Source: Escherichia coli (lineage in GTDB: Bacteria; Pseudomonadota; Gammaproteobacteria; Enterobacterales; Enterobacteriaceae). From it: a stretch of DNA of 64,000 nucleotides. Below are positions 19,089-63,409 of the stretch, in pieces; within the stretch, counting starts at the first letter, position 1, and the number at the start of each line of letters is the position of its first letter. The notes below the pieces were generated by a model. It searched no databases. It was not told the origin of the DNA and saw nothing but the letters and a program-made list of their open reading frames with translations. The stretch lies in NCBI RefSeq assembly GCF_044324875.1, contig NZ_CP172185.1; one strand, written 5' to 3'. Position numbers and translations under genes: made by a program.

Positions 19089-19403
19089 TTAAATCCCCGG
19101 TTGCAGAATACGGATATTCATCTCCAGCACGTCGCCTTTTACGGCTTCGCTGTACGCCTTCATGTGCGGGGTTTGCAGATGCGCTTCAAGATGCGCGATG
19201 CTTTCCCACTGCTCAATCATCACGATAGAATCCGGTGCCATAGACTGGAAACTCACGCCAGCAGCGCAATCCACCATTGGCGCATAGCCGTGGCAACCTT
19301 CTTCTTTCAGTACGGTTGGAACGATTTTAGCAAACTGATCCAATACCGCCTGACGGTGATGTTGACCAGGACGAGTACGGATTTCTGCGATTACGGTAAG
19401 CAT
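19089..19403 (-). CDS. ygiN: Quinol monooxygenase YgiN
   Basis: 104-aa ORF; antibiotic-biosynthesis-monooxygenase-like sequence; conserved partner downstream of mdaB. Confidence 0.9.
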   Translation of the reverse strand: MLTVIAEIRTRPGQHHRQAVLDQFAKIVPTVLKEEGCHGYAPMVDCAAGVSFQSMAPDSIVMIEQWESIAHLEAHLQTPHMKAYSEAVKGDVLEMNIRILQPGI

Positions 19404-19433
19404 GGTTAACTCCTTCTAAAGCCTAAGCTCTAG

Positions 19434-20015
19434 TTAACCAAAAATTTCCACAAGATGCTTGCGATATTCTTCAGTATAGCGGGGAACATCAGGCATTTTT
19501 ATCACGTCATTAGCGATAAATGTCGGCAGCGGTTCCATGCCAAGGAATTGGTTTGCTTTATGGAACGGCAGATACACACCGTCAACGCCAACGCCGTGGA
19601 AGAACTGATCTTTTTCGGTGAAGGCTTCCATTGGTGCGTTCCAGGTCAGAGAAAGCATATATTTTTTGCCCTGTACCAGGCCGCCGGAACCGTATTTTTT
19701 CGACGGATCTTTGCGGGTACGACCATCGCTGGCATACAGCGTCCCGTGACCTTCGGTGAATACATCATCAATGTATTTTTTCACTGTCCACGGCGCGCCC
19801 ATCCACCAGCCTGGCATCTGCCAAATCACCACATCAGCCCAGAGAAAGTTTTGTACTTCCGCTTTGACATCGTAGTCGCTGTCGGCGCGAACGATGCGGA
19901 CATCATGCCCGAGGTCGCGCAGTGTGCCATCCGCGACTTCGGTCAGGGTGTCGTTCAGTTGACCATTGGAGTGGGCGAATTTTTTCGCGCCGTTGATAAT
20001 TAGGATGTTGCTCAT
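19434..20015 (-). CDS. mdaB: NADPH:quinone oxidoreductase MdaB
   Basis: 193-aa ORF beginning MSNILIINGAKKFAHSNGQLN; flavodoxin-like fold protein. Confidence 0.9.
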   Translation of the reverse strand: MSNILIINGAKKFAHSNGQLNDTLTEVADGTLRDLGHDVRIVRADSDYDVKAEVQNFLWADVVIWQMPGWWMGAPWTVKKYIDDVFTEGHGTLYASDGRTRKDPSKKYGSGGLVQGKKYMLSLTWNAPMEAFTEKDQFFHGVGVDGVYLPFHKANQFLGMEPLPTFIANDVIKMPDVPRYTEEYRKHLVEIFG

Positions 20016-23754: not shown

Positions 23755-26013
23755 ATGAGCGATATGGCAGAGCGCCTTGCGCTACATGAATTTACGGAAA
23801 ACGCCTACTTAAACTACTCCATGTACGTGATCATGGACCGCGCGTTGCCGTTTATTGGTGATGGTCTGAAACCTGTTCAGCGCCGCATTGTGTATGCGAT
23901 GTCTGAGCTGGGCCTGAATGCCAGCGCCAAATTTAAAAAATCGGCCCGTACCGTCGGTGACGTACTGGGTAAATACCATCCGCACGGCGATAGCGCTTGT
24001 TATGAAGCGATGGTCCTGATGGCGCAGCCGTTCTCTTACCGTTATCCGCTGGTTGATGGTCAGGGGAACTGGGGCGCGCCGGACGATCCGAAATCGTTCG
24101 CAGCAATGCGTTACACCGAATCCCGGTTGTCGAAATATTCCGAGCTGCTATTGAGCGAGCTGGGGCAGGGGACGGCTGACTGGGTGCCAAACTTCGACGG
24201 CACTTTGCAGGAGCCGAAAATGCTACCTGCCCGTCTGCCAAACATTTTGCTTAACGGCACCACCGGTATTGCCGTCGGCATGGCGACCGATATTCCACCG
24301 CATAACCTGCGTGAAGTGGCTCAGGCGGCAATCGCATTAATCGACCAGCCGAAAACCACGCTCGACCAGCTGCTGGATATCGTGCAGGGGCCGGATTATC
24401 CGACTGAAGCGGAAATTATCACTTCGCGCGCCGAGATCCGTAAAATCTACGAGAACGGACGTGGTTCAGTGCGTATGCGCGCGGTTTGGAAGAAAGAAGA
24501 TGGCGCGGTGGTTATCAGCGCATTGCCGCATCAGGTTTCAGGTGCGCGCGTACTGGAGCAAATTGCTGCGCAAATGCGCAACAAAAAGCTGCCGATGGTT
24601 GACGATCTGCGCGATGAATCTGACCACGAGAACCCGACCCGTCTGGTGATTGTGCCGCGTTCCAACCGCGTGGATATGGATCAGGTGATGAACCACCTCT
24701 TCGCAACCACCGATCTGGAAAAGAGCTATCGTATTAACCTCAATATGATCGGTCTGGATGGTCGTCCGGCGGTGAAAAACCTGCTGGAAATCCTCTCCGA
24801 ATGGCTGGTGTTCCGCCGCGATACCGTGCGCCGCCGACTGAACTATCGTCTGGAGAAAGTCCTCAAGCGCCTGCATATCCTCGAAGGTTTGCTGGTGGCG
24901 TTTCTCAATATCGACGAAGTGATTGAGATCATTCGTAATGAAGATGAACCGAAACCGGCGCTGATGTCGCGGTTTGGCCTTACGGAAACCCAGGCGGAAG
25001 CGATCCTCGAACTGAAACTGCGTCATCTTGCCAAACTGGAAGAGATGAAGATTCGCGGTGAGCAGAGTGAGCTGGAAAAAGAGCGCGACCAGTTGCAGGG
25101 CATTTTGGCTTCCGAGCGTAAAATGAATAACCTGCTGAAGAAAGAACTGCAGGCAGACGCGCAAGCCTACGGTGACGAACGTCGTTCGCCGTTGCAGGAA
25201 CGCGAAGAAGCGAAAGCGATGAGCGAGCACGACATGCTGCCGTCTGAACCTGTCACCATTGTGCTGTCGCAGATGGGCTGGGTACGCAGCGCTAAAGGCC
25301 ATGATATCGACGCGCCGGGCCTGAATTATAAAGCGGGCGATAGCTTCAAAGCGGCGGTGAAAGGTAAGAGCAACCAACCGGTAGTGTTTGTTGATTCCAC
25401 CGGTCGTAGCTATGCCATCGACCCGATTACGCTGCCGTCGGCGCGTGGTCAGGGCGAGCCGCTCACCGGCAAATTAACGTTGCCGCCTGGAGCGACCGTT
25501 GACCATATGCTGATGGAAAGCGACGATCAGAAACTGCTGATGGCTTCCGATGCGGGTTACGGTTTCGTCTGCACCTTTAACGATCTGGTAGCGCGTAACC
25601 GTGCAGGTAAGGCTTTGATCACCTTACCGGAAAATGCCCATGTTATGCCGCCGGTGGTGATTGAAGATGCTTCCGATATGCTGCTGGCAATCACTCAGGT
25701 AGGCCGTATGTTGATGTTCCCGGTAAGCGATCTGCCGCAGCTGTCGAAGGGCAAAGGCAACAAGATTATCAACATTCCATCGGCAGAAGCCGCGCGTGGA
25801 GAAGATGGTCTGGCGCAACTGTACGTTCTGCCGCCGCAAAGCACGCTGACCATTCATGTTGGGAAACGCAAAATTAAACTGCGTCCGGAAGAGCTACAGA
25901 AAGTCACTGGCGAACGTGGACGCCGCGGTACGTTGATGCGCGGTTTGCAGCGTATCGATCGTGTTGAGATCGACTCTCCTCGCCGTGCCAGCAGCGGTGA
26001 TAGCGAAGAGTAA
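23755..26013 (+). CDS. parC: DNA topoisomerase IV subunit A
   Basis: 752-aa ORF; GyrA/ParC N-terminal catalytic region (active-site AAMRYTE region) and C-terminal beta-pinwheel. Confidence 0.95.
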
Positions 26014-26054
26014 TATGCCGGGGAGGGCGCTGTTTCCTCCCGCTTGCAAGGAAC

Positions 26055-26084
26055 GCCGGATGAAACGTTAAGTCGTCATCCGGC
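26055..26084 (+). terminator. REP-like stem-loop downstream of parC
   Basis: gccggatga ... tcatccggc inverted repeat about 40 nt after the parC stop. Confidence 0.35.
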
Positions 26085-26246
26085 AGCGTATTCAACCCCC
26101 GGAAACGATAAAAATTCCCTTGAAACCGTTGTTTATTCATGCGTTGCGATTAACAATACGCTTTTCCAGAGAGCGGCTTTTAACAATGCCCTAACCTGAT
26201 TTCAGGTGACGTACAATGCCAGTCTCTCAGACCTTCAGAGGGTGTT

Positions 26247-26984
26247 ATGCTATATATCTTTCGTCTTATTATTACCGTGATTTACAGCATCTTAGTCTGT
26301 GTATTCGGCTCCATTTACTGCCTTTTCAGCCCGCGTAACCCGAAACATGTGGCCACCTTTGGGCATATGTTTGGCCGTCTTGCGCCGCTTTTCGGCCTGA
26401 AAGTGGAGTGCCGCAAACCTGCAGACGCTGAAAGCTACGGCAATGCTATCTATATCGCTAACCACCAGAACAACTATGACATGGTGACAGCATCGAACAT
26501 TGTGCAACCGCCGACGGTGACGGTGGGGAAAAAGAGCTTGCTGTGGATCCCCTTCTTCGGGCAGTTGTACTGGTTAACCGGCAACCTATTGATCGACAGA
26601 AACAATCGCACTAAAGCTCACGGCACTATTGCGGAAGTCGTGAATCACTTCAAAAAACGCCGTATTTCCATCTGGATGTTCCCGGAAGGTACCCGCAGCC
26701 GTGGTCGCGGCCTGCTACCGTTCAAGACCGGGGCATTTCACGCGGCAATTGCGGCGGGCGTCCCGATTATTCCCGTGTGCGTCTCTACAACTTCGAATAA
26801 GATTAATCTTAATCGACTGCACAACGGTCTGGTGATTGTCGAAATGTTGCCGCCAATTGACGTCAGTCAGTATGGCAAAGATCAGGTTCGCGAGTTGGCT
26901 GCCCATTGTCGTTCGATAATGGAACAAAAAATCGCTGAGCTCGATAAAGAAGTCGCAGAGCGCGAAGCCGCCGGAAAAGTTTAA
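26247..26984 (+). CDS. plsC: 1-acyl-sn-glycerol-3-phosphate acyltransferase
   Basis: 245-aa ORF with acyltransferase HX4D motif (NHQNNYD) and PEGTR motif. Confidence 0.9.
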   Translation: MLYIFRLIITVIYSILVCVFGSIYCLFSPRNPKHVATFGHMFGRLAPLFGLKVECRKPADAESYGNAIYIANHQNNYDMVTASNIVQPPTVTVGKKSLLWIPFFGQLYWLTGNLLIDRNNRTKAHGTIAEVVNHFKKRRISIWMFPEGTRSRGRGLLPFKTGAFHAAIAAGVPIIPVCVSTTSNKINLNRLHNGLVIVEMLPPIDVSQYGKDQVRELAAHCRSIMEQKIAELDKEVAEREAAGKV

Positions 26985-53068: not shown

Positions 53069-54568
53069 ATGCTAAATTTATTTGTTGGCCTTGATATATA
53101 CACGGGGCTTTTGTTATTACTTGCTCTGGCATTTGTGTTGTTCTACGAAGCAATCAATGGTTTTCATGATACGGCGAATGCGGTGGCAACCGTTATTTAT
53201 ACTCGTGCCATGCAACCACAACTTGCTGTGGTGATGGCGGCATTTTTTAACTTTTTTGGCGTATTGCTAGGCGGACTTAGCGTTGCCTATGCCATTGTCC
53301 ATATGTTGCCAACCGATTTGTTGCTGAATATGGGGTCAACTCACGGCCTGGCGATGGTCTTTTCCATGCTGCTGGCGGCGATTATCTGGAACCTGGGAAC
53401 GTGGTTCTTTGGTTTACCGGCCTCCAGTTCGCATACCTTGATTGGTGCGATTATCGGCATCGGTTTAACCAACGCGCTGTTAACCGGCTCATCGGTGATG
53501 GATGCGTTAAACCTGCGTGAAGTGACCAAAATTTTCTCCTCGCTGATTGTTTCCCCTATCGTCGGCCTGGTCATTGCGGGAGGTCTGATATTCCTGCTGC
53601 GCCGCTACTGGAGCGGGACGAAAAAGCGTGACCGTATTCACCGCATTCCGGAAGATCGCAAAAAGAAAAAAGGCAAACGTAAGCCACCATTCTGGACGCG
53701 TATTGCGCTGATTGTTTCCGCTGCGGGCGTGGCGTTTTCGCACGGCGCGAACGACGGGCAGAAAGGGATCGGCCTGGTGATGCTGGTACTGGTGGGGATT
53801 GCTCCTGCTGGTTTCGTCGTCAATATGAATGCGTCCGGCTATGAAATTACCCGTACCCGCGATGCCGTCACCAACTTTGAACACTATCTGCAACAGCATC
53901 CTGAACTGCCGCAGAAGTTAATTGCGATGGAACCTCCATTGCCTGCGGCATCGACTGATGGCACGCAAGTAACGGAGTTTCATTGTCATCCGGCAAATAC
54001 CTTTGATGCGATTGCGCGCGTTAAAACGATGTTGCCAGGTAATATGGAAAGCTACGAGCCGTTAAGCGTGAGTCAGCGCAGCCAGCTGCGCCGCATTATG
54101 CTGTGCATCTCTGATACCTCTGCGAAGCTGGCGAAACTGCCAGGCGTCAGTAAAGAAGATCAGAACCTGCTGAAAAAACTGCGCAGCGATATGTTAAGCA
54201 CCATTGAGTACGCTCCGGTGTGGATCATCATGGCGGTAGCACTGGCGCTCGGCATTGGTACCATGATTGGCTGGCGTCGTGTAGCGATGACCATCGGTGA
54301 GAAGATTGGTAAGCGCGGCATGACGTATGCGCAAGGGATGGCGGCGCAGATGACGGCGGCGGTATCTATCGGCCTTGCCAGTTATATTGGGATGCCTGTT
54401 TCCACAACACACGTCCTCTCGTCTGCGGTAGCAGGGACGATGGTGGTGGACGGCGGTGGGTTACAGCGTAAAACGGTAACCAGCATCCTGATGGCGTGGG
54501 TGTTTACTTTACCGGCGGCGATTTTTCTGTCTGGTGGGTTGTACTGGATAGCATTGCAGTTGATTTAA
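53069..54568 (+). CDS. pitB: Low-affinity inorganic phosphate transporter (PiT family)
   Basis: 499-aa polytopic membrane ORF with PiT-family motifs (GANDGQKG); preceded by an AT-rich upstream region. Confidence 0.9.
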
Positions 54569-54616: not shown

Positions 54617-55309
54617 CTAGTGATAACCACGCGCGGTCATAAAATCCGTAATCGCTTTTTCTGCATCAACCAGCACCTTTTCCAGTGGCTGATTGGCATC
54701 GATATCAACCAGTTGTGCACCACCAAAGGTTAACTGTGGCGTTATTGCAATCTTCCTCGCCAGCGATTCCCGTTTATGGTCGGGTTTACGCGCGCAGGCA
54801 ACTTCAAGGTCAACATTGAGTTTGATGACCAGATCAGGTTTATGGCTCGCCATCCAGTGAAACGCTTTACGTTCCTGGCTTGCCAGCCATGAGACAAACC
54901 GGCCGCCTTCAACGTTAGGCGGGAACACTGTACCATCGTAAGCGCCAGGAATTTGGTCCTGAGGATAACGGTCGGTTAGAACAATTAACCCGCGACGACG
55001 ACAGGCAAGCATATGACGAAAGCGCAGTAAGCGACGGGCGACAAACGCTGTAATTACCAGCGCCGGAACAGGGCCAGGCAATTTTTTTGCTGTTTTCACC
55101 TGATTTCGTTCAATTGTTTTATGTAAGGATTTTCCCATCAACGGTAATTTTGTCACTGCACGACCGACATTTCCGGCCTGTTTTCCTAAATGAACTCTTT
55201 CGGCTGCACCATATTTTTCGACAACGGTAATGAGATGTTCACACACCGTTGACTTGCCTGAACCATCGCTACCAATAACGGCAATTAATGGAGGTGTTAT
55301 TGACTGCAT
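54617..55309 (-). CDS. yghT: P-loop NTPase of unknown function YghT
   Basis: 230-aa ORF with Walker A (GSDGSGKST) and hydrophobic-Asp Walker-B-like LTDRYPQ; paralog of the next two genes. Confidence 0.8.
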
Positions 55310-55389
55310 GAATATATCCTTTAATTTAAATATCCATTAAAAATATTTATTTGGTTAATATGTTTTTATGAAAGCGTAATTCAGGTCAA

Positions 55390-55414
55390 TGTCACAATTA
55401 ACCATTGTCACAAT
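55390..55414. promoter_or_regulatory. Direct repeat TGTCACAAT x2 in the yghT/yghS divergent promoter region
   Basis: tgtcacaat at about 55390-55398 and 55406-55414 within an AT-rich divergent intergenic region; candidate operator. Confidence 0.3.
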
Positions 55415-55482
55415 AAGGTTGAACGGATATTCTGAGCACGGACCACGTAATATTCAATACATTATTTGCTGCCGGGTTTTTC

Positions 55483-56196
55483 GTGAATCAACGTAATATG
55501 TCAATAATTAATTCCACGCCAGTGCGTGTTATTGCCATTGTAGGATGTGATGGTTCAGGTAAATCGACCCTCACGGCAAGCCTGGTAAATGAACTGGCAG
55601 CAAGAATGCCAACAGAACACATTTATCTCGGGCAATCGTCCGGGCGAATTGGCGAATGGATTTCACAGCTCCCTGTTATTGGCGCACCTTTTGGGCGTTA
55701 TCTGCGAAGTAAAGCGGCACATGTGCACGAAAAGCCCTCAACACCGCCTGGCAATATTACTGCGCTGGTTATCTATCTGCTTTCCTGCTGGCGGGCGTAT
55801 AAGTTTCGCAAAATGTTGTGTAAAAGCCAGCAAGGCTATCTGCTCATCACCGACCGCTACCCGCAGGTTGAAGTGCCGGGTTTTCGCTTTGATGGCCCGC
55901 AATTGGCAAAAACCACGGGCGGTAACGGTTGGATAAAAATGTTAAGGCAGCGCGAGCTGAAGCTGTACCAATGGATGGCGTCTTATTTGCCCGTATTGTT
56001 GATTCGTCTTGGCATTGATGAACAAACGGCGTTTGCGCGTAAACCTGACCACCAACTGGCGGCGTTACAGGAAAAAATCGCCGTTACGCCGCAACTGACA
56101 TTCAATGGCGCAAAGATCCTTGAACTGGATGGTCGGCAACCAGCCGATGAAATTATGCAAGCGTCACTACGCGCAATTCACGCCGCGCTTTCCTGA
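55483..56196 (+). CDS. yghS: P-loop NTPase of unknown function YghS
   Basis: 237-aa ORF with Walker A (GCDGSGKST) and ITDRYPQ; paralog of yghT and yghR. Confidence 0.8.
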   Translation: MNQRNMSIINSTPVRVIAIVGCDGSGKSTLTASLVNELAARMPTEHIYLGQSSGRIGEWISQLPVIGAPFGRYLRSKAAHVHEKPSTPPGNITALVIYLLSCWRAYKFRKMLCKSQQGYLLITDRYPQVEVPGFRFDGPQLAKTTGGNGWIKMLRQRELKLYQWMASYLPVLLIRLGIDEQTAFARKPDHQLAALQEKIAVTPQLTFNGAKILELDGRQPADEIMQASLRAIHAALS

Positions 56197-56227
56197 TCAC
56201 CAAAATGGATAGGGGATGATTTAACGA

Positions 56228-56986
56228 ATGGATGCACTACAAACACAAACTGTTAATAGTACAACCGCGCCGCAGCCCAACTACATTCCGGGGCTGATTG
56301 CGGTGGTCGGGTGTGATGGCACCGGTAAATCCACGCTGACCACCGACCTGGTGAAATCGCTGCAACAACACTGGCAAACCGAGCGCCGCTATCTGGGGCT
56401 GCTCTCCGGCGAAGACGGCGACAAAATCAAACGATTGCCGTTGGTTGGCGTCTGGCTGGAACGGCGACTGGCGGCCAAATCCTCGAAAACCCAAAGCATG
56501 AAAACCAAATCTCCAGCGCTATGGGCGGCGGTGATTATGTACTGCTTCTCGCTGCGAAGAATGGCGAATCTACGCAAGGTTCAGCGACTGGCGCAAAGTG
56601 GCGTTCTGGTGGTCAGCGATCGCTTCCCGCAGGCTGAAATTTCGGGCTTTTATTATGACGGACCGGGGATCGGCGTCGAACGTGCGACCGGGAAAATCAG
56701 CATGTTTCTGGCGCAGCGCGAACGGCGTTTATACCAAAAAATGGCGCAATACCGTCCTGAATTAATCATTCGTTTGGGGATTGATATTGATACTGCCATC
56801 TCCCGCAAGCCTGACCATGACTATGCCGAGCTGCAGGACAAAATCGGCGTCATGTCGACGATTGGCTATAACGGCACAAAAATTCTTGAGATTGATTCCA
56901 GAGCGCCCTACAGCGAAGTGCTGGAACAGGCACAGAAGGCGGTTTCTCTGGTTGCCATCGTTTCTGACCGCCGAAGTTTAACTTAA
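56228..56986 (+). CDS. yghR: P-loop NTPase of unknown function YghR
   Basis: 252-aa ORF with Walker A (GCDGTGKST) and VSDRFPQ; third paralog. Confidence 0.8.
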   Translation: MDALQTQTVNSTTAPQPNYIPGLIAVVGCDGTGKSTLTTDLVKSLQQHWQTERRYLGLLSGEDGDKIKRLPLVGVWLERRLAAKSSKTQSMKTKSPALWAAVIMYCFSLRRMANLRKVQRLAQSGVLVVSDRFPQAEISGFYYDGPGIGVERATGKISMFLAQRERRLYQKMAQYRPELIIRLGIDIDTAISRKPDHDYAELQDKIGVMSTIGYNGTKILEIDSRAPYSEVLEQAQKAVSLVAIVSDRRSLT

Positions 56987-57031: not shown

Positions 57032-58381
57032 TTGGCGGGTTTTAACATCAAACATTGGTTTGCAGATGGCGCGTTTCGCACCATTATTCGCAATAGCGCC
57101 TGGTTAGGCTCCAGTAATGTCGTGAGCGCCTTGCTGGGTCTGTTGGCGCTCTCGTGTGCCGGTAAAGGGATGACGCCCGCCATGTTTGGCGTACTGGTGA
57201 TTGTGCAATCGTACGCCAAGTCGATCAGCGATTTTATTAAGTTTCAGACATGGCAGTTGGTGGTGCAGTACGGAACACCAGCATTAACCAACAATAATCC
57301 ACAGCAATTCCGCAATGTCGTCTCATTTTCCTTCTCGCTGGATATCGTCAGCGGCGCGGTGGCGATTGTCGGCGGCATTGCCTTACTCCCTTTTCTTTCC
57401 CATTCATTAGGTCTGGATGACCAAAGCTTTTGGCTGGCAGCGCTGTATTGCACGCTCATTCCTTCAATGGCTTCCTCCACGCCGACCGGCATTCTGCGTG
57501 CGGTAGATCGCTTCGACTTAATTGCTGTACAGCAGGCGACGAAACCTTTTCTGCGCGCAGCGGGGAGCGTCGTTGCCTGGTATTTTGACTTTGGTTTTGC
57601 GGGTTTTGTTATTGCCTGGTACGCCTCGAATCTTGTTGGCGGCACCATGTACTGGTGGTTTGCCGCACGTGAATTACGCCGCAGAAATATCCATAACGCG
57701 TTCAAATTGAATCTGTTTGAGTCTGCCCGACACATCAAAGGCGCGTGGAGTTTTGTCTGGTCAACCAACATTGCCCATTCCATCTGGTCGGCGCGTAATT
57801 CGTGCAGCACAGTGTTGGTGGGGATCGTGTTAGGACCCGCTGCCGCCGGGTTATTTAAAATCGCCATGACATTCTTCGACGCCGCCGGAACGCCAGCGGG
57901 TTTACTGGGCAAAAGTTTTTACCCAGAGGTGATGCGTTTAGATCCGCGTACCACCAGACCGTGGTTGTTAGGCGTGAAGTCAGGTTTACTGGCGGGCGGA
58001 ATCGGTATTCTGGTGGCGCTCGCGGTGTTGATCGTCGGCAAGCCGCTCATTTCGCTGGTGTTTGGCGTTAAGTATCTCGAAGCGTATGACCTGATTCAGG
58101 TGATGCTGGGCGCAATTGTGATCTCGATGCTGGGCTTCCCTCAGGAGTCATTGCTATTGATGGCGGGAAAACAGCGCGCTTTTCTCGTGGCGCAAACCAT
58201 CGCCTCAATCGGCTACATCGTATTGCTGTTCATGTTCTGTCATCTGTTTGGCGTGCTGGGGGCTGCATTTGCTTACTTCGGTGGGCAATGTCTGGATGTG
58301 GTGTTCTCGCTAATTCCGACCTTAAAGGCATTTTTTCAGCGCCATTCCTTGCTTTATAACTCAGCCGGAGAGAAATCCTGA
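57032..58381 (+). CDS. yghQ: Polytopic inner membrane protein, Wzx/MOP-flippase-like (YghQ)
   Basis: 449-aa ORF, hydrophobic throughout with many predicted transmembrane segments; the ORF-track start is a TTG, so the true start may be an internal ATG (for example about 57170). Confidence 0.7.
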   Translation: MAGFNIKHWFADGAFRTIIRNSAWLGSSNVVSALLGLLALSCAGKGMTPAMFGVLVIVQSYAKSISDFIKFQTWQLVVQYGTPALTNNNPQQFRNVVSFSFSLDIVSGAVAIVGGIALLPFLSHSLGLDDQSFWLAALYCTLIPSMASSTPTGILRAVDRFDLIAVQQATKPFLRAAGSVVAWYFDFGFAGFVIAWYASNLVGGTMYWWFAARELRRRNIHNAFKLNLFESARHIKGAWSFVWSTNIAHSIWSARNSCSTVLVGIVLGPAAAGLFKIAMTFFDAAGTPAGLLGKSFYPEVMRLDPRTTRPWLLGVKSGLLAGGIGILVALAVLIVGKPLISLVFGVKYLEAYDLIQVMLGAIVISMLGFPQESLLLMAGKQRAFLVAQTIASIGYIVLLFMFCHLFGVLGAAFAYFGGQCLDVVFSLIPTLKAFFQRHSLLYNSAGEKS

Positions 58382-59217
58382 TGATGAGAAAATATTTCCC
58401 GCTTGAGGCGAGCGAGCGTCTATTTGTTGCGATTGAAGAAGATGATGTTGTTGATGCACAGGTCAGTTTGCCGCCGACTATCGCACTAAGTTGTACCACC
58501 GAAATCATCCATGATAATTACGCGTTATGCCTGCAATTCTGGCTCAATGGCGTCAATCGCCAGGAGTTACTGCGTTTAATATGCAAACAGGCCAAAGGCG
58601 ATGAGCTGACTGCTGATGAGCGCAAACAATTTAAATACATGCGAGCGCGCTACAAGCACCTGCGTTTTGCGCAACGGCTGTATTTAAAAAAGCATCAGGC
58701 CGGATTTTTATTCGGCAAAACGACCGTTTTTTTGGGGCGTTTTCAGGACGGCTTTCGTAACGGTAAGAAAAATATTGTGTCGTATTACGGCAACCTGTTA
58801 CGGGTTTATTTAAGCTCTCCGGTCTGGTCGTTGGTGAACTATTCATTACGCCATAGCCAGTTAGAAAGCGTAAGCGGTTTTATTGCCTATCGGCAAAAGC
58901 AAATGCATACCCTGAAAGAGATAATTGCCAAACCGCGACTAACTGGCAGGGAATTTCATGATGTGCGAAAAATCATCAGCCAGCAGGTTTCTTATTACGA
59001 CACCTTAAGATCGCTTGATCCTGAAAATAAAGAGGCGTTACTGATTTCCCGTTTTCTCGCCGCCATTAATGGTCTGATGGGGGATAAGCACGACGACATG
59101 GTGGCGGATGATATGGAAAACCGCCAGTCGTATGATGCACCGGTGGCGCTGGATAGCGATATTCGCCAGCGTTTAGAACTGCTGATTTCGCGTTTCCCAC
59201 TCTATCCGGAGCAATAA
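58381..59217 (+). CDS. Hypothetical soluble protein (no recognised domain)
   Basis: 278-aa ORF whose ATG overlaps the yghQ stop (ATGA) and whose stop overlaps the next start (TAATG); no transmembrane segment or signal peptide seen. Confidence 0.6.
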   Translation: MMRKYFPLEASERLFVAIEEDDVVDAQVSLPPTIALSCTTEIIHDNYALCLQFWLNGVNRQELLRLICKQAKGDELTADERKQFKYMRARYKHLRFAQRLYLKKHQAGFLFGKTTVFLGRFQDGFRNGKKNIVSYYGNLLRVYLSSPVWSLVNYSLRHSQLESVSGFIAYRQKQMHTLKEIIAKPRLTGREFHDVRKIISQQVSYYDTLRSLDPENKEALLISRFLAAINGLMGDKHDDMVADDMENRQSYDAPVALDSDIRQRLELLISRFPLYPEQ

Positions 59218-59777
59218 TGCCATCTCGTTGGATTTTCGCTCTGATCATCGCACTCTTAGCGCCAGGCGCGGTGGCACACAATTTCGTCACTGGCAAAACG
59301 GTTACCCCTGTTTATATCCAGGAAGGCGGTGAGTTGCTTCTGAAAAGCGACGACGAAATTCACTACCAAAAGTGGAACAGCACACAGCTGGCGGGAAAAG
59401 TTCGCATTATTCAGTATATCGCCGGGCGTAAGTCGGCGAAGAAAAAGAACTCACTGTTAATTAAAGCGGTTGAAGCGGCAAACTTTCCGCAGGATCGTTT
59501 TCAGCCCACCACCATTGTGAACACCGATGATGCCATTTTTGGTACTGGCTATTTTGTCGTTGGCAAAATCGAAAAAAATAAACGCCGCTATCCGTGGGCG
59601 CAATTCGTTATTGACGGCAATGGACAGGGACGCGTTGCCTGGCGGTTGCCGGAGCAGAGTTCAACCATTCTGGTGCTGAATAAAGACGGGCAAATTCAGT
59701 GGGCAAAGGACGGCAGCCTGACGCCGGAAGAGGTAGATCATGTCATTGCGCTGGCGCAGAAACTGATCAATGAATAA
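59217..59777 (+). CDS. Secreted/periplasmic protein with signal peptide (possibly YtfJ-like)
   Basis: 186-aa ORF with N-terminal signal peptide (MPSRWIFALIIALLAPGAVA); family assignment tentative. Confidence 0.55.
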   Translation: MPSRWIFALIIALLAPGAVAHNFVTGKTVTPVYIQEGGELLLKSDDEIHYQKWNSTQLAGKVRIIQYIAGRKSAKKKNSLLIKAVEAANFPQDRFQPTTIVNTDDAIFGTGYFVVGKIEKNKRRYPWAQFVIDGNGQGRVAWRLPEQSSTILVLNKDGQIQWAKDGSLTPEEVDHVIALAQKLINE

Positions 59778-59807: not shown

Positions 59808-60878
59808 ATGAAGCTGGTTGAACACTACATCATGCGTGGTACGCGCCGTCTGGTGTTGATTATCGTCGGTTTTCTGATCTTTATTTTCGCCAGCTACTCC
59901 GCACAGCGTTATCTGACCGAAGCGGCAAATGGGACATTAGCTCTTGATGTTGTGCTGGATATCGTTTTCTACAAAGTGCTGATTGCACTGGAGATGTTGT
60001 TACCTGTTGGACTGTATGTGTCAGTTGGCGTGACGCTAGGGCAGATGTATACCGATTCGGAAATTACCGCTATCTCTGCGGCGGGGGGCAGTCCGGGACG
60101 CTTGTACAAAGCCGTTCTTTATCTGGCGATACCGCTAAGTATTTTTGTCACCCTTCTGTCGATGTATGGTCGTCCGTGGGCTTATGCGCAGATTTATCAA
60201 CTGGAGCAACAGTCACAGTCGGAGCTGGATGTTCGCCAGTTGCGGGCAAAGAAATTTAACACTAACGATAACGGACGAATGATCCTTTCCCAGACGGTTG
60301 ATCAGGATAATAATCGCCTGACTGACGCGCTGATTTATACTTCTACTGCCAATCGAACCCGCATTTTCCGCGCCCGTTCGGTTGATGTGGTTGACCCATC
60401 TCCCGAGAAACCGACCGTTATGTTGCACAACGGGACAGCCTATCTTCTCGATCATCAGGGGCGTGACGACAACGAACAGATCTACCGTCATCTGCAATTA
60501 CATCTGAATCCGCTGGATCAAAGCCCTAACGTCAAACGCAAAGCGAAATCGGTCACGGAGCTGGCGCGCTCCGTCTTTCCAGCCGATCATGCCGAACTGC
60601 AATGGCGACAAAGCCGTGGCCTGACAGCATTGTTGATGGCGCTGCTGGCCATTTCATTAAGTCGGGTAAAACCGCGGCAAGGGCGATTTTCAACATTATT
60701 GCCACTGACGTTGCTGTTTATTGCCATTTTTTATGGCGGCGACGTCTGCCGTACGCTGGTGGCTAACGGCGCGATTCCCCTCATTCCTGGTTTGTGGTTA
60801 GTACCCGGACTCATGCTAATGGGCCTGCTGATGCTGGTCGCACGCGACTTCTCTTTGCTGCAGAAATTTTCCCGATGA
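59808..60878 (+). CDS. YjgP/YjgQ-family permease, LptF paralog
   Basis: 356-aa ORF with the N-terminal helix pair, LG..Y.DSEITA motif, a large periplasmic insert and the RQGRF motif typical of LptF/LptG; location shows it is not the canonical lptF. Confidence 0.8.
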   Translation: MKLVEHYIMRGTRRLVLIIVGFLIFIFASYSAQRYLTEAANGTLALDVVLDIVFYKVLIALEMLLPVGLYVSVGVTLGQMYTDSEITAISAAGGSPGRLYKAVLYLAIPLSIFVTLLSMYGRPWAYAQIYQLEQQSQSELDVRQLRAKKFNTNDNGRMILSQTVDQDNNRLTDALIYTSTANRTRIFRARSVDVVDPSPEKPTVMLHNGTAYLLDHQGRDDNEQIYRHLQLHLNPLDQSPNVKRKAKSVTELARSVFPADHAELQWRQSRGLTALLMALLAISLSRVKPRQGRFSTLLPLTLLFIAIFYGGDVCRTLVANGAIPLIPGLWLVPGLMLMGLLMLVARDFSLLQKFSR

Positions 60879-61954
60879 ATGTTTTCAGTCGCTATTTAAT
60901 CCGTCATCTCTTTCTCGGTTTTGCCGCCGCCGCAGGGCTATTGCTGCCGCTTTTTACCACCTTCAACCTGATTAACGAACTGGATGATGTCAGCCCGGGT
61001 GGTTATCGCTGGACTCAGGCGGTGCTGGTGGTGCTGATGACCTTACCGCGCACACTGGTCGAACTTTCGCCGTTTATCGCATTATTGGGAGGGATTGTTG
61101 GCCTGGGGCAGTTATCGAAAAACAGTGAGCTTACCGCCATTCGCAGCACGGGGTTTTCTATCTTCCGTATTGCACTAGTGGCGCTGGTTGCCGGGATATT
61201 TTGGACTGTTTCGTTAGGCGCGATAGATGAGTGGGTGGCGTCGCCATTGCAGCAACAGGCGCTGCAAATCAAATCGACTGCCACCGCGTTGGGGGAGGAC
61301 GATGACATTACCGGCAATATGCTTTGGGCCAGGCGCGGTAATGAATTTGTGACGGTGAAATCGCTGAACGAGCAGGGCCAGCCTGTGGGCGTGGAGATAT
61401 TTCATTATCGCGACGATCTCTCGCTCGAATCCTACATTTTTGCACGCAGTGCCTCCATTGAAGACGACAAAACGTGGATCCTGCATGGTGTGAATCATAA
61501 AAAATGGTTGAATGGCAAAGAAACGCTGGAAACATCAGATAATCTTGCCTGGCAATCGGCCTTCACCAGTATGAATCTTGAAGAGTTATCGATGCCGGGA
61601 AATACTTTTTCTGTCCGTCAACTTAATCATTACATCCATTATTTGCAGGAAACTGGGCAACCCAGCAGCGAATACCGCCTTGCACTGTGGGAAAAACTGG
61701 GACAACCCATCCTGACCCTGGCGATGATTTTGCTGGCTGTGCCGTTTACCTTTAGTGCCCCGCGTTCGCCTGGGATGGGTAGCCGTCTCGCTGTAGGCGT
61801 CATCGTGGGCTTACTTACCTGGATCAGCTATCAAATCATGGTCAATCTGGGATTGCTATTTGCGTTGAACGCACCTGTTACCGCGCTCGGTTTACCGGTA
61901 GCGTTTGTGCTGGTGGCGTTGAGCCTGGTGTATTGGTATGACAGACAACATTAA
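60875..61954 (+). CDS. YjgP/YjgQ-family permease, LptG paralog
   Basis: ORF 60794..61954 trimmed to MNVFSRYLIRHLFLGF (359 aa), whose ATG overlaps the upstream stop (ATGA); LptG-like motifs (SEL.A..S.G, PRSPGMGSR). Confidence 0.8.
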   Translation: MNVFSRYLIRHLFLGFAAAAGLLLPLFTTFNLINELDDVSPGGYRWTQAVLVVLMTLPRTLVELSPFIALLGGIVGLGQLSKNSELTAIRSTGFSIFRIALVALVAGIFWTVSLGAIDEWVASPLQQQALQIKSTATALGEDDDITGNMLWARRGNEFVTVKSLNEQGQPVGVEIFHYRDDLSLESYIFARSASIEDDKTWILHGVNHKKWLNGKETLETSDNLAWQSAFTSMNLEELSMPGNTFSVRQLNHYIHYLQETGQPSSEYRLALWEKLGQPILTLAMILLAVPFTFSAPRSPGMGSRLAVGVIVGLLTWISYQIMVNLGLLFALNAPVTALGLPVAFVLVALSLVYWYDRQH

Positions 61955-61988: not shown

Positions 61989-63161
61989 TTACTGCTTCAG
62001 AGTAGCGAACGCTTGAATGATGGCATCAATTTGCTCACGACTGTGGGCAGCGTTTACGCTACAGCGCAGCAGCGTGATGCCTGCAGGCGCGGCAGGTGGC
62101 AGGATAAGATTCACATAAACGCCCAGCGAAATAAGCTCGCGCCAGATGCGTAAACCTTCCTCTTTCGAACCGATTATTACTGGCACTACCGGGCTAATAT
62201 GTGAACTTAACTCATAACCCAGTTTTTGCAGACCGTCATACAGATGGTTGGCATTATCCATCAGCTTTTGCCGCAACTCTGGTTGTGTAGCAATGGTTCT
62301 TAACGACGAGCGCACGGTCGCAATGCAGGACGGAGAAGGAGAGGCGGTAAAAATATACGGGCGGCTGCCGTAGCGCAGCACTTCCATCGCTTCCGAACCG
62401 ACAGCAAAACCGCCAATCGAGGCCAGACTTTTACTGAAAGTACCAACGATAATATCCACATCATCTTCAACGCCAACGGCTTCAGCCAGTCCGCGCCCCG
62501 TTGCGCCTAACACGCCAAACGAATGCGCTTCATCGACAATCAAATAACCACCGAGACGACGTTTGATATCAACAATTTCCGCCAGCGGCGCAACGTCACC
62601 GAGCATACTGTAGATGCCTTCAACGATGATAATCGCCTCTTTTGCCCGTTCACCGAGGCGAACCATGCGCCGTTCCAGATCTTTAGCATCGTTATGGCGG
62701 AAACGAATAATTTCCGCGCCACCGAGAGAACAGGCGTCATAAATACTGGCGTGGCTGTCGGCATCCAGTAACACCACGGCGTTATGGTCGGCAAGTGCGC
62801 TGATGACGCCTAAATTAGCGGTATAACCGGTTGAAAAAACGATAGCGGTAGGGCGATTAAAAAACTCGGCGATCTCTTTCTCTAACGCCAGATGCGGCGC
62901 ATAACTGCCGTTTGCCATACGAGAACCGGTGGTGCCGGTGCCTTGGGCCGCTAACGCTGCCTGACCTTCGGCGATGGCATCATGATTGAAGGTTAATCCG
63001 AGATAATTATTGGTCCCGGCCAGAATCACTTTTTTATTGCCGATCCGGCCTTCGGTGGCGGAATACACTTCATCAATACAGGTACCAAACGGCGTTAACC
63101 CGTTGTCACTAAATTGCAGTCGCTCGCCAGCAAGACGCGCATATTTATCGTATAGCCCCAT
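61989..63161 (-). CDS. Serine palmitoyltransferase-like PLP-dependent alpha-oxoamine synthase
   Basis: 390-aa ORF with the PLP-lysine motif GTFSKS (Spt-type; BioF has TFGKG, KBL has GTLGKA) and further blocks recalled from Sphingomonas Spt (AIVFSTGY.ANLG, LDADSHASIYD, VDEAHS, RPYIFTAS, PPA.PAG, LLRCS). Confidence 0.8.
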   Translation of the reverse strand: MGLYDKYARLAGERLQFSDNGLTPFGTCIDEVYSATEGRIGNKKVILAGTNNYLGLTFNHDAIAEGQAALAAQGTGTTGSRMANGSYAPHLALEKEIAEFFNRPTAIVFSTGYTANLGVISALADHNAVVLLDADSHASIYDACSLGGAEIIRFRHNDAKDLERRMVRLGERAKEAIIIVEGIYSMLGDVAPLAEIVDIKRRLGGYLIVDEAHSFGVLGATGRGLAEAVGVEDDVDIIVGTFSKSLASIGGFAVGSEAMEVLRYGSRPYIFTASPSPSCIATVRSSLRTIATQPELRQKLMDNANHLYDGLQKLGYELSSHISPVVPVIIGSKEEGLRIWRELISLGVYVNLILPPAAPAGITLLRCSVNAAHSREQIDAIIQAFATLKQ

Positions 63162-63409
63162 TATTTATTCTCCAGCCATGGAAGTAGTGTTTCCATTAAT
63201 TGCGCAGGGGTTTTGACATCCAGCAGAATATTAATAGGAATGGAAATATCGAATCTGTCTTCCAGCATCATTAAGAGATCCATCACTTTGATCGACTCCA
63301 GGCCAAGATCGTTGACGAGATCGCTGTCGGGCTTAATTTCCACACCGTTTTCGACCAAATCCTGTAAACAGGAAAGGATGTAATCCATTACTATTTCACG
63401 ATTTACCAT
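63161..63409 (-). CDS. Acyl carrier protein (dedicated ACP)
   Basis: 82-aa acidic ORF with the phosphopantetheine-attachment context DLGLESIKVMDL; stop overlaps the Spt-like start (TAATG). True start may be the internal Met at about 63388. Confidence 0.7.
   Translation of the reverse strand: MVNREIVMDYILSCLQDLVENGVEIKPDSDLVNDLGLESIKVMDLLMMLEDRFDISIPINILLDVKTPAQLMETLLPWLENK

Follow-up and report, generated by a model that had tools for sequence, protein, structure and literature searches.

The stretch of Escherichia coli DNA analyzed here (64,000 nucleotides of contig NZ_CP172185.1, NCBI RefSeq assembly GCF_044324875.1; hereafter the window) covers the pitB-glc region with its sphingolipid locus, and this work concerns one gene of that locus, here named ytfJ2. 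The window is chromosomal and shares 98.6% identity with several complete E. coli genomes. The genes follow one another in the order hyb, yghU, gss, pitB, yghT, yghS, yghR, yghQ, a gene for an orphan protein, ytfJ2, lptF2 and lptG2, while the opposite strand carries spt, the acyl carrier protein gene acpR, an NAD-dependent epimerase-family reductase (cerR-like) and a fatty acyl-AMP ligase (aasR), followed by yghO and glcC. An original prediction, made from the letters of the window, had placed a secreted protein of 186 residues directly upstream of a pair of LptF/LptG-like permeases. The open reading frame is exactly where it was described, running from ATG to TAA, and the permease pair is there as well, the matches of LptF2 and LptG2 extending over the full length of both proteins, but it had been overlooked that these genes together make up the sphingolipid locus of enterobacteria. 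YtfJ2 is a dedicated paralogue of the sigma-E-regulated protein YtfJ, probably recruited into this locus.

The family assignment, which had previously been graded as weak, proved to be very strong. YtfJ2 matches the Pfam profile PF09695 (YtfJ_HI0045) at E=1e-59, with 201 bits (cut-off 24) over profile positions 3-159 of 160, as well as the NCBIfam model TIGR01626, with 213 bits (cut-off 151.1) over positions 1-183 of 184, and RefSeq E. coli genomes label the gene "YtfJ family protein". The family is small, with 408 cluster representatives at E<=1e-3 among 1.84 billion. YtfJ2 resembles YtfJ of E. coli (b4216) and HI0045 in length, signal-peptide layout and conserved loops, with a full-length hidden Markov model match and 55% identity to the housekeeping E. 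coli protein. The clades nevertheless differ: that of b4216 is found at paeA-ytfK-ytfJ-cysQ (paeA-ytfK-ytfJ-ytfI-cysQ in E. coli), whereas the YtfJ2 clade is separate, monophyletic, more basic and always in a sphingolipid locus. Housekeeping ytfJ is a gene of the sigma-E envelope-stress response (PMC4447067). The literature that mentions ytfJ contains regulation data only (sigma-E, ppGpp) or variant lists that are not interpretable, and we identified no solved YtfJ structure, the PDB sequence and profile searches with YtfJ2 having returned nothing meaningful.

It is clear that ytfJ2 is no chance open reading frame, given its annotation, its presence in 4120 of 5426 complete E. coli genomes (at a coverage of at least 80%; housekeeping ytfJ is present in nearly all) and a dN/dS of 0.09-0.16 against other Escherichia lineages, which places it under purifying selection. 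As had been expected, the product has the layout of a secreted protein: the N-terminus reads MPSR-WIFALIIALLAPG-AVA, followed across the putative cleavage point by HNF, and contains a single basic residue, some 12 residues that form a hydrophobic core (Kyte-Doolittle 2.3-2.9) and, for cleavage, an AxA motif. The consensus of 72 homologues shows the same signal-peptide layout. Reading of the N-terminal sequence revealed neither a twin arginine nor a lipobox (the latter because the protein has no cysteine). Export by Sec and cleavage by signal peptidase I after Ala20 are therefore predicted, which would leave a periplasmic mature protein of 166 residues, 18.7 kDa and pI 9.2. A signal peptide followed by a mature part of about 165 residues is also the layout of the YtfJ family, with the location in the case of YtfJ2 read from the sequence only.

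The distribution of the gene was mapped in a scan of one genome per species, in which 80 loci were classified by tblastn with the neighboring proteins; 43 of them showed housekeeping synteny and 37 were sphingolipid loci. All 37 locus-type copies are co-located with spt and ceramide-synthesis genes, in at least 13 genera (Escherichia, Pseudocitrobacter, Citrobacter, Serratia, Hafnia, Mangrovibacter, Klebsiella (K. indica), Pantoea, Erwinia, Sodalis, Rahnella, Pluralibacter and Shimwellia), and with synteny thus kept in 37 of 37 species loci the earlier suggestion that the protein is functionally tied to its neighbors gained weight. YtfJ2 comes directly after the orphan, and the orphan after the flippase, in 35 of the 36 sphingolipid loci for which upstream sequence was available. 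LptF2-LptG2 comes directly after YtfJ2 in 30 of the 37, is rearranged within the locus in three, and is absent from the 6-kb flanks in four. The linkage of YtfJ2 is tightest to the flippase and the orphan, and not to LptF2/LptG2; these four genomes keep flippase-orphan-YtfJ2 beside spt without LptF2G2. Separate look-ups found a matching block in Citrobacter farmeri, Serratia liquefaciens, Pseudocitrobacter, Erwinia billingiae and Shimwellia (L004-L010), and a protein only 44% identical to YtfJ2 (P0131) lies in a locus of the same gene order (L095). Both ytfJ and ytfJ2 are present in four species. Distant members of the family are found in unrelated contexts, such as a carotenoid cluster.

In a neighbor-joining tree with 60 distant representatives as outgroups (no bootstrap) the locus copies all group in a single clade, next to that of the Enterobacteriaceae housekeeping copies, while a first, midpoint-rooted neighbor-joining tree built without outgroups (no bootstrap) nested the housekeeping clade inside the locus copies. 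The ytfJ/ytfJ2 duplication may therefore have gone in either direction. The four reduced loci (L035, L038, L041 and L042) fall on one tree branch and consist of the flippase, the CHAD-like orphan and YtfJ2 together with spt, acpR, the reductase, aasR and yghO, the three P-loop kinases and LptF2/LptG2 being absent within the flanks; the Pantoea coffeiphila locus has this composition, with no kinases. Enterobacterial-type ytfJ loci (57-64% identity, typical synteny) were also met under the titles Martelella alba (L033) and Chryseobacterium sp. (L078), and these are probably contaminated or mislabelled assemblies.

Table 1. Features of ytfJ2 and its surroundings, in window coordinates (residues of YtfJ2 loops in mature numbering).
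Feature	Position	Strand	Basis
Promoter-like site upstream of yghS	55405-55433		
yghS and yghR (P-loop kinase-like), first genes of the same-strand run	55483..56986	+	
yghQ, MOP/Wzx-type flippase-like membrane protein; stop overlaps the orphan start	57032..58381	+	PF01943, PF13440, junction sequence
Orphan, 278 aa, cytoplasmic, all-alpha, divergent CHAD-like fold	58381..59217	+	
GGAG Shine-Dalgarno, 5 nt before the ytfJ2 ATG	59208..59211	+	sequence reading
ytfJ2 coding sequence, 186 aa, YtfJ family, stop included	59217..59777	+	open reading frame list, PF09695, TIGR01626, RefSeq annotation
Predicted signal peptide, residues 1-20 (MPSRWIFALIIALLAPGAVA), cleavage after AVA	59217..59276	+	hydropathy, AxA motif
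Mature domain, 166 aa, predicted TlpA/ResA-like thioredoxin fold, no cysteine	59277..59774	+	
Basic loop Q46-x-IAGRxSAKKKNS59, probable CXXC place of TlpA-like proteins	59412..59453	+	conservation table; placement from secondary-structure order
Loop Q76-PTTIVNTDDAIxGxG91; N82 kept family-wide	59502..59549	+	conservation
A7 homopolymer inside ytfJ2	59572..59578	+	sequence
Y105-P-W-A-Q-F-x-x-D113-x-x-G116, cis-proline loop place of thioredoxin folds	59589..59624	+	conservation
lptF2, LptF paralogue	59808..60878	+	PF03739 E=1e-53; TIGR04407 318 bits
lptG2, LptG paralogue, ATGA overlap with lptF2	60875..61954	+	PF03739 E=2e-68; TIGR04408 304 bits
Hairpin, 16-bp stem (9 G-C pairs), exactly between the convergent lptG2 and spt stop codons	61952..61986	.	
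spt (serine palmitoyltransferase) and acpR (dedicated acyl carrier protein)	61989..63409	-	NF047599 600 bits (cut-off 500); PF00550

The arrangement of the genes suggests that ytfJ2 is co-transcribed with yghQ, the orphan gene and lptF2/lptG2. This reading of the DNA is based on the tight junctions (yghQ/orphan -1, orphan/ytfJ2 -1, ytfJ2/lptF2 +30 and lptF2/lptG2 -4 nucleotides), on the promoter-like site upstream of yghS, on the failure to find a strong internal terminator in the yghS-lptG2 run, and on the hairpin after lptG2, which is likely the end of the operon and a bidirectional terminator. In the window the TAA of the orphan gene (59215-59217) overlaps the ATG of ytfJ2 in a TAATG junction, the orphan protein ending in ...RFPLYPEQ; in four other Escherichia lineages (L012-L015) it stops after ...RFPL, 12 nucleotides earlier, and the overlap is therefore allele-specific. 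As for the neighbors, AcpR, AasR and Spt of E. coli BL21 have been biochemically characterized, and the locus reductase and YghO are homologous to the ceramide reductase and the N-acyltransferase of Caulobacter (PMC9386255). The RefSeq annotation pipeline PGAP labels lptF2 and lptG2 (59808-61954) "LPS export ABC transporter permease LptF/LptG", since both score above the cut-offs of TIGR04407 and TIGR04408, YghS and YghT (54617-56196) "dTMP kinase" and YghQ (57032-58381) "lipopolysaccharide biosynthesis protein". In a sphingolipid locus, such names probably say too much.

A small secreted protein encoded at this position could be expected to be the periplasmic lipid-handling partner of the permeases, similar to LptA or LptC, and the original prediction had proposed structure prediction and fold comparison as a way of deciding. 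The AlphaFold2 model of mature YtfJ2, computed from an alignment of 72 sequences, has high confidence (mean pLDDT 88.8, pTM 0.85), with pLDDT below 75 in two stretches, residues 50-57 (the lowest) and 81-90, and a value of 62 for block 51-60. A Foldseek search of the model against the PDB gave 581 matches at E<=1e-3, of which the best 50 were listed, and these are all thioredoxin-like (TlpA, ResA, CcmG/DsbE, Etrx, peroxiredoxin and Sco types). As modeled, YtfJ2 is a TlpA/ResA-type thioredoxin fold, with the N-terminal hairpin and the central insertion that characterize TlpA, ResA and CcmG. The model is alpha/beta, no beta-jellyroll is found among the listed matches, and no OstA or LptC Pfam match was obtained, even at E<=10. 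That YtfJ2 would be an LptA/LptC-like jellyroll bridge taking lipid from LptF2G2 is therefore scarcely credible: the gene does lie directly upstream of lptF2-lptG2, and no LptC2 has been found outside Caulobacter, but the idea is refuted as to the fold, and YtfJ2 resembles the LptA/LptC (OstA) lipopolysaccharide (LPS) bridge only in its predicted place in the periplasm and in being encoded close to LptF/G-like permeases, the family being another one as well. A confident match to a family unrelated to lipid binding, without predicted interaction with the permeases, had been named as what would overturn the proposal; the first half of this is borne out, by a fold without a known lipid-transport role.

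The same structural matches, with DsbE/CcmG, ResA, TlpA, peroxiredoxins and Sco at the top, could point to a thiol-disulfide oxidoreductase, a peroxiredoxin or a Sco-like copper chaperone. We consider this highly improbable. Mature YtfJ2 has no cysteine at all and is therefore incapable of thiol-redox chemistry. The wider family was represented by 103 sequences (27-48% identity), and 78 of them lack cysteine past the signal peptide, so that the YtfJ family is non-redox as a rule. TlpA, ResA, CcmG (DsbE), Etrx and AhpC/TSA proteins have a CXXC motif or a peroxidatic cysteine, whereas YtfJ2 has neither (identity 7-16%), reads AGR-K-S-A-K, with [KT]-S-A-K in place of CXXC, and has no Redoxin or AhpC-TSA Pfam match at E<=10. 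Consequently, neither the PxxxT/SxxC peroxidatic cysteine of peroxiredoxins nor the CxxxC motif of Sco/SenC proteins is found. As for the distal histidine of the latter, the only invariant histidine is mature His1, whose invariance in the enterobacterial clades speaks for a metal site; it is not kept family-wide, however, and there is no second conserved histidine, which is why the idea of a copper-binding histidine brace was dropped.

In thioredoxin-like enzymes, the catalytic face is made up of three loops, and the loops of YtfJ2 that probably correspond to them are highly conserved (Table 1). The first, after strand 42-49, reads A49-G-R-K-S-A-K-K-K-N58, is near-invariant among enterobacterial sequences and, judging from the order of secondary-structure elements, probably takes the place of CXXC. 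In the third, P106, a putative cis-proline to judge by its place, is present in 85% of the enterobacterial sequences and in 81% of those of the family, and D113 is present in 99% of sequences. Across the 103 representatives, the positions conserved in at least 80% are only G18, W33, A49, N82, G89, K102, P106, D113, G116, W122, L124, G138 and G146.

Such a face might also have acquired a new active site. YtfJ2 could in principle be a periplasmic enzyme that modifies the headgroup of the flipped sphingolipid (a phosphatase, transferase or hydrolase built on the cysteine-free scaffold), with D84/D85, K55, R51 and His1 as examples of candidate active-site residues. This is quite unlikely in our judgement, considering that the wider family has not kept most of these residues, that no catalytic motif is recognizable, and that no enzyme-family match was obtained in PDB sequence and profile searches or in Pfam at E<=10.

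The two clades were also compared in charge, and ytfJ2 was compared with its neighbors in rate of evolution. The median net charge is +5 in locus copies and +2 in housekeeping copies (Mann-Whitney p=5e-8, kinship ignored), and K97 and K100 are fixed in locus copies. The dN/dS values of the locus neighbors range from 0.02 to 0.21, mostly 0.02-0.07 for the flippase, lptF2 and spt and reaching 0.1-0.2 for yghS and yghR. YtfJ2 and the orphan have the highest dN of the locus against more distant Escherichia lineages, the dS of ytfJ2 being similar to that of its neighbors and only dN being higher. An apparent hypervariability of ytfJ2 within E. coli was set aside, as it is mostly lineage divergence, with dS similar to the neighbors.

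Several E. coli alleles are altered. Seven clusters of 153-154 residues (P0114, P0061, P0073, P0081, P0096, P0098 and P0099) match YtfJ2 over the first ~120 residues (65% of the query), and P0114, which reads ...GKIEKINAAIRG, diverges after residue 120 as expected from the loss of one A of the A7 homopolymer, suggesting that this run is either the site of a frameshift or pseudogene allele that recurs or a place prone to sequencing errors. In another allele (P0121) the first ~208 residues of PitB are fused directly to YtfJ2 (window positions 53069.. and 59217..), which would correspond to a deletion spanning yghT through the orphan gene. E. coli SCU-115 (L011), whose ytfJ2 is 100% identical to that of the window, has, per annotation, an orphan gene with an internal stop (19165-20001) and a frameshifted aasR (25136-26808); some E. 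coli lineages are therefore losing the locus by decay, with ytfJ2 still intact.

These observations bear on the question of whether the position of ytfJ2 has a functional meaning. YtfJ2 could be a hitch-hiker whose task in the envelope is a general one, no different from that of housekeeping YtfJ, and whose place in the locus reflects inherited gene order only, as may be suggested by the 62 conserved positions shared between the clades against 6 fixed differences, by other YtfJ members occurring in unrelated contexts (the carotenoid cluster, housekeeping synteny), and by the frameshifted alleles. We regard this as unlikely, since the linkage has been broken neither by the several rearrangements that the locus has undergone (in Serratia, Erwinia, Sodalis and metagenome bins) nor by divergence to as little as 44% identity, both copies are kept in four species, the tight junctions are consistent with co-translation, and the gene is under the purifying selection described above.

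A comparison for a role in the locus is offered by Caulobacter, where LptF2 and LptG2 form a mutual complex and bind LptB, and can be deleted only in the absence of the sphingolipid or of its anionic headgroup (bioRxiv 10.64898/2026.04.12.717747). The outer-membrane sphingolipid of this organism is anionic, LptC2 appears to occur in no other organism, and sphingolipid transport is described as unknown in its periplasmic and outer-membrane steps (bioRxiv 10.64898/2026.04.12.717747). Caulobacter crescentus LptC2 and YtfJ2 are both small envelope proteins encoded beside LptF2/LptG2, in an analogous accessory niche (PMC11324152; bioRxiv 10.64898/2026.04.12.717747), but LptC2 is an inner-membrane-anchored beta-jellyroll protein found in Caulobacter only, whereas YtfJ2, soluble by prediction and with a modeled thioredoxin fold, is found in Enterobacterales-type loci only. 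No YtfJ-like description is found among the 17 Caulobacter locus genes in the supplementary text of PMC11324152.

We tentatively propose, with a probability of roughly 45%, that YtfJ2 serves the lipid of the locus in the periplasm as a dedicated binding or adaptor protein, non-redox and non-catalytic, and acts in sphingolipid export or maturation. This proposal is based on the stable linkage to the locus, on the coexistence of the housekeeping copy in four species, on the purifying selection, on the extra positive charge of the locus copies, and on the periplasmic step of sphingolipid transport being a known gap. In the corresponding mechanism, YtfJ2 would be exported by Sec and, after removal of the signal peptide behind Ala20, would be a soluble periplasmic protein. 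YghQ would flip a ceramide-derived, probably anionic lipid, and YtfJ2 would act afterwards, on the periplasmic side of the inner membrane, binding through the conserved face that was once the active site, with its cationic AGRxSAKKKN loop, its NTDD loop and its YPW/cis-Pro loop. It may then hold the lipid or aid its hand-over to an Lpt-type extractor, before or during extraction, this extractor being LptF2G2 or, where LptF2G2 is missing, the housekeeping Lpt machine. With three P-loop kinases and a CHAD-like protein encoded in the locus, its lipid may be a phosphorylated one. The ligand, the partner and the direction of transfer in this scheme are those that we infer from the context.

Several points weigh against this proposal. 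We know of no precedent for a thioredoxin fold as a lipid carrier, and no report of the lipid product of the E. coli locus was found in the literature consulted. Four genomes, those of Rahnella woolbedingensis, Pantoea coffeiphila, Erwinia sp. JUb26 and an uncultured Erwinia, have neither LptF2G2 (6-kb flanks) nor the kinases beside YtfJ2. Within the 103 representatives, the cationic loop and His1 are confined to the enterobacterial clades, and there the locus and housekeeping proteins have far more positions conserved in common than fixed differences. Frameshifted alleles circulate in E. coli, and ytfJ2 is therefore dispensable in at least some strains. Additionally, E. coli K-12, which is not known to have an intact sphingolipid locus, retains housekeeping YtfJ; with the face shared by both clades, this means that the face may bind something unrelated to sphingolipids.

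A broader version of the proposal would make the whole YtfJ family unrecognized cysteine-free thioredoxin-fold lipid handlers, with YtfJ2 serving between YghQ and the Lpt-type extractor, and YtfJ doing likewise for LPS or another envelope lipid under sigma-E control; this is a speculative extension, which we hold to be rather doubtful.

The gene, its family and its annotation were already known, but its link to the sphingolipid locus appears to be undescribed: no such link was found in the literature searched, including the papers on LptF2/G2, and the sole paper containing both "YtfJ" and "sphingolipid" has unrelated content. If the link should be only historical, the finding shrinks to the correct annotation of an ordinary paralogue. 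As it stands, the Enterobacterales locus, including that of about three quarters of complete E. coli genomes, carries a YtfJ paralogue, predicted to be periplasmic, and a CHAD-like protein, and these would be two genetically tractable candidates, in a model organism, for the periplasmic step of the sphingolipid. The locus may also provide the first functional context for the YtfJ family, which within the sigma-E regulon has until now been a "conserved protein of unknown function".

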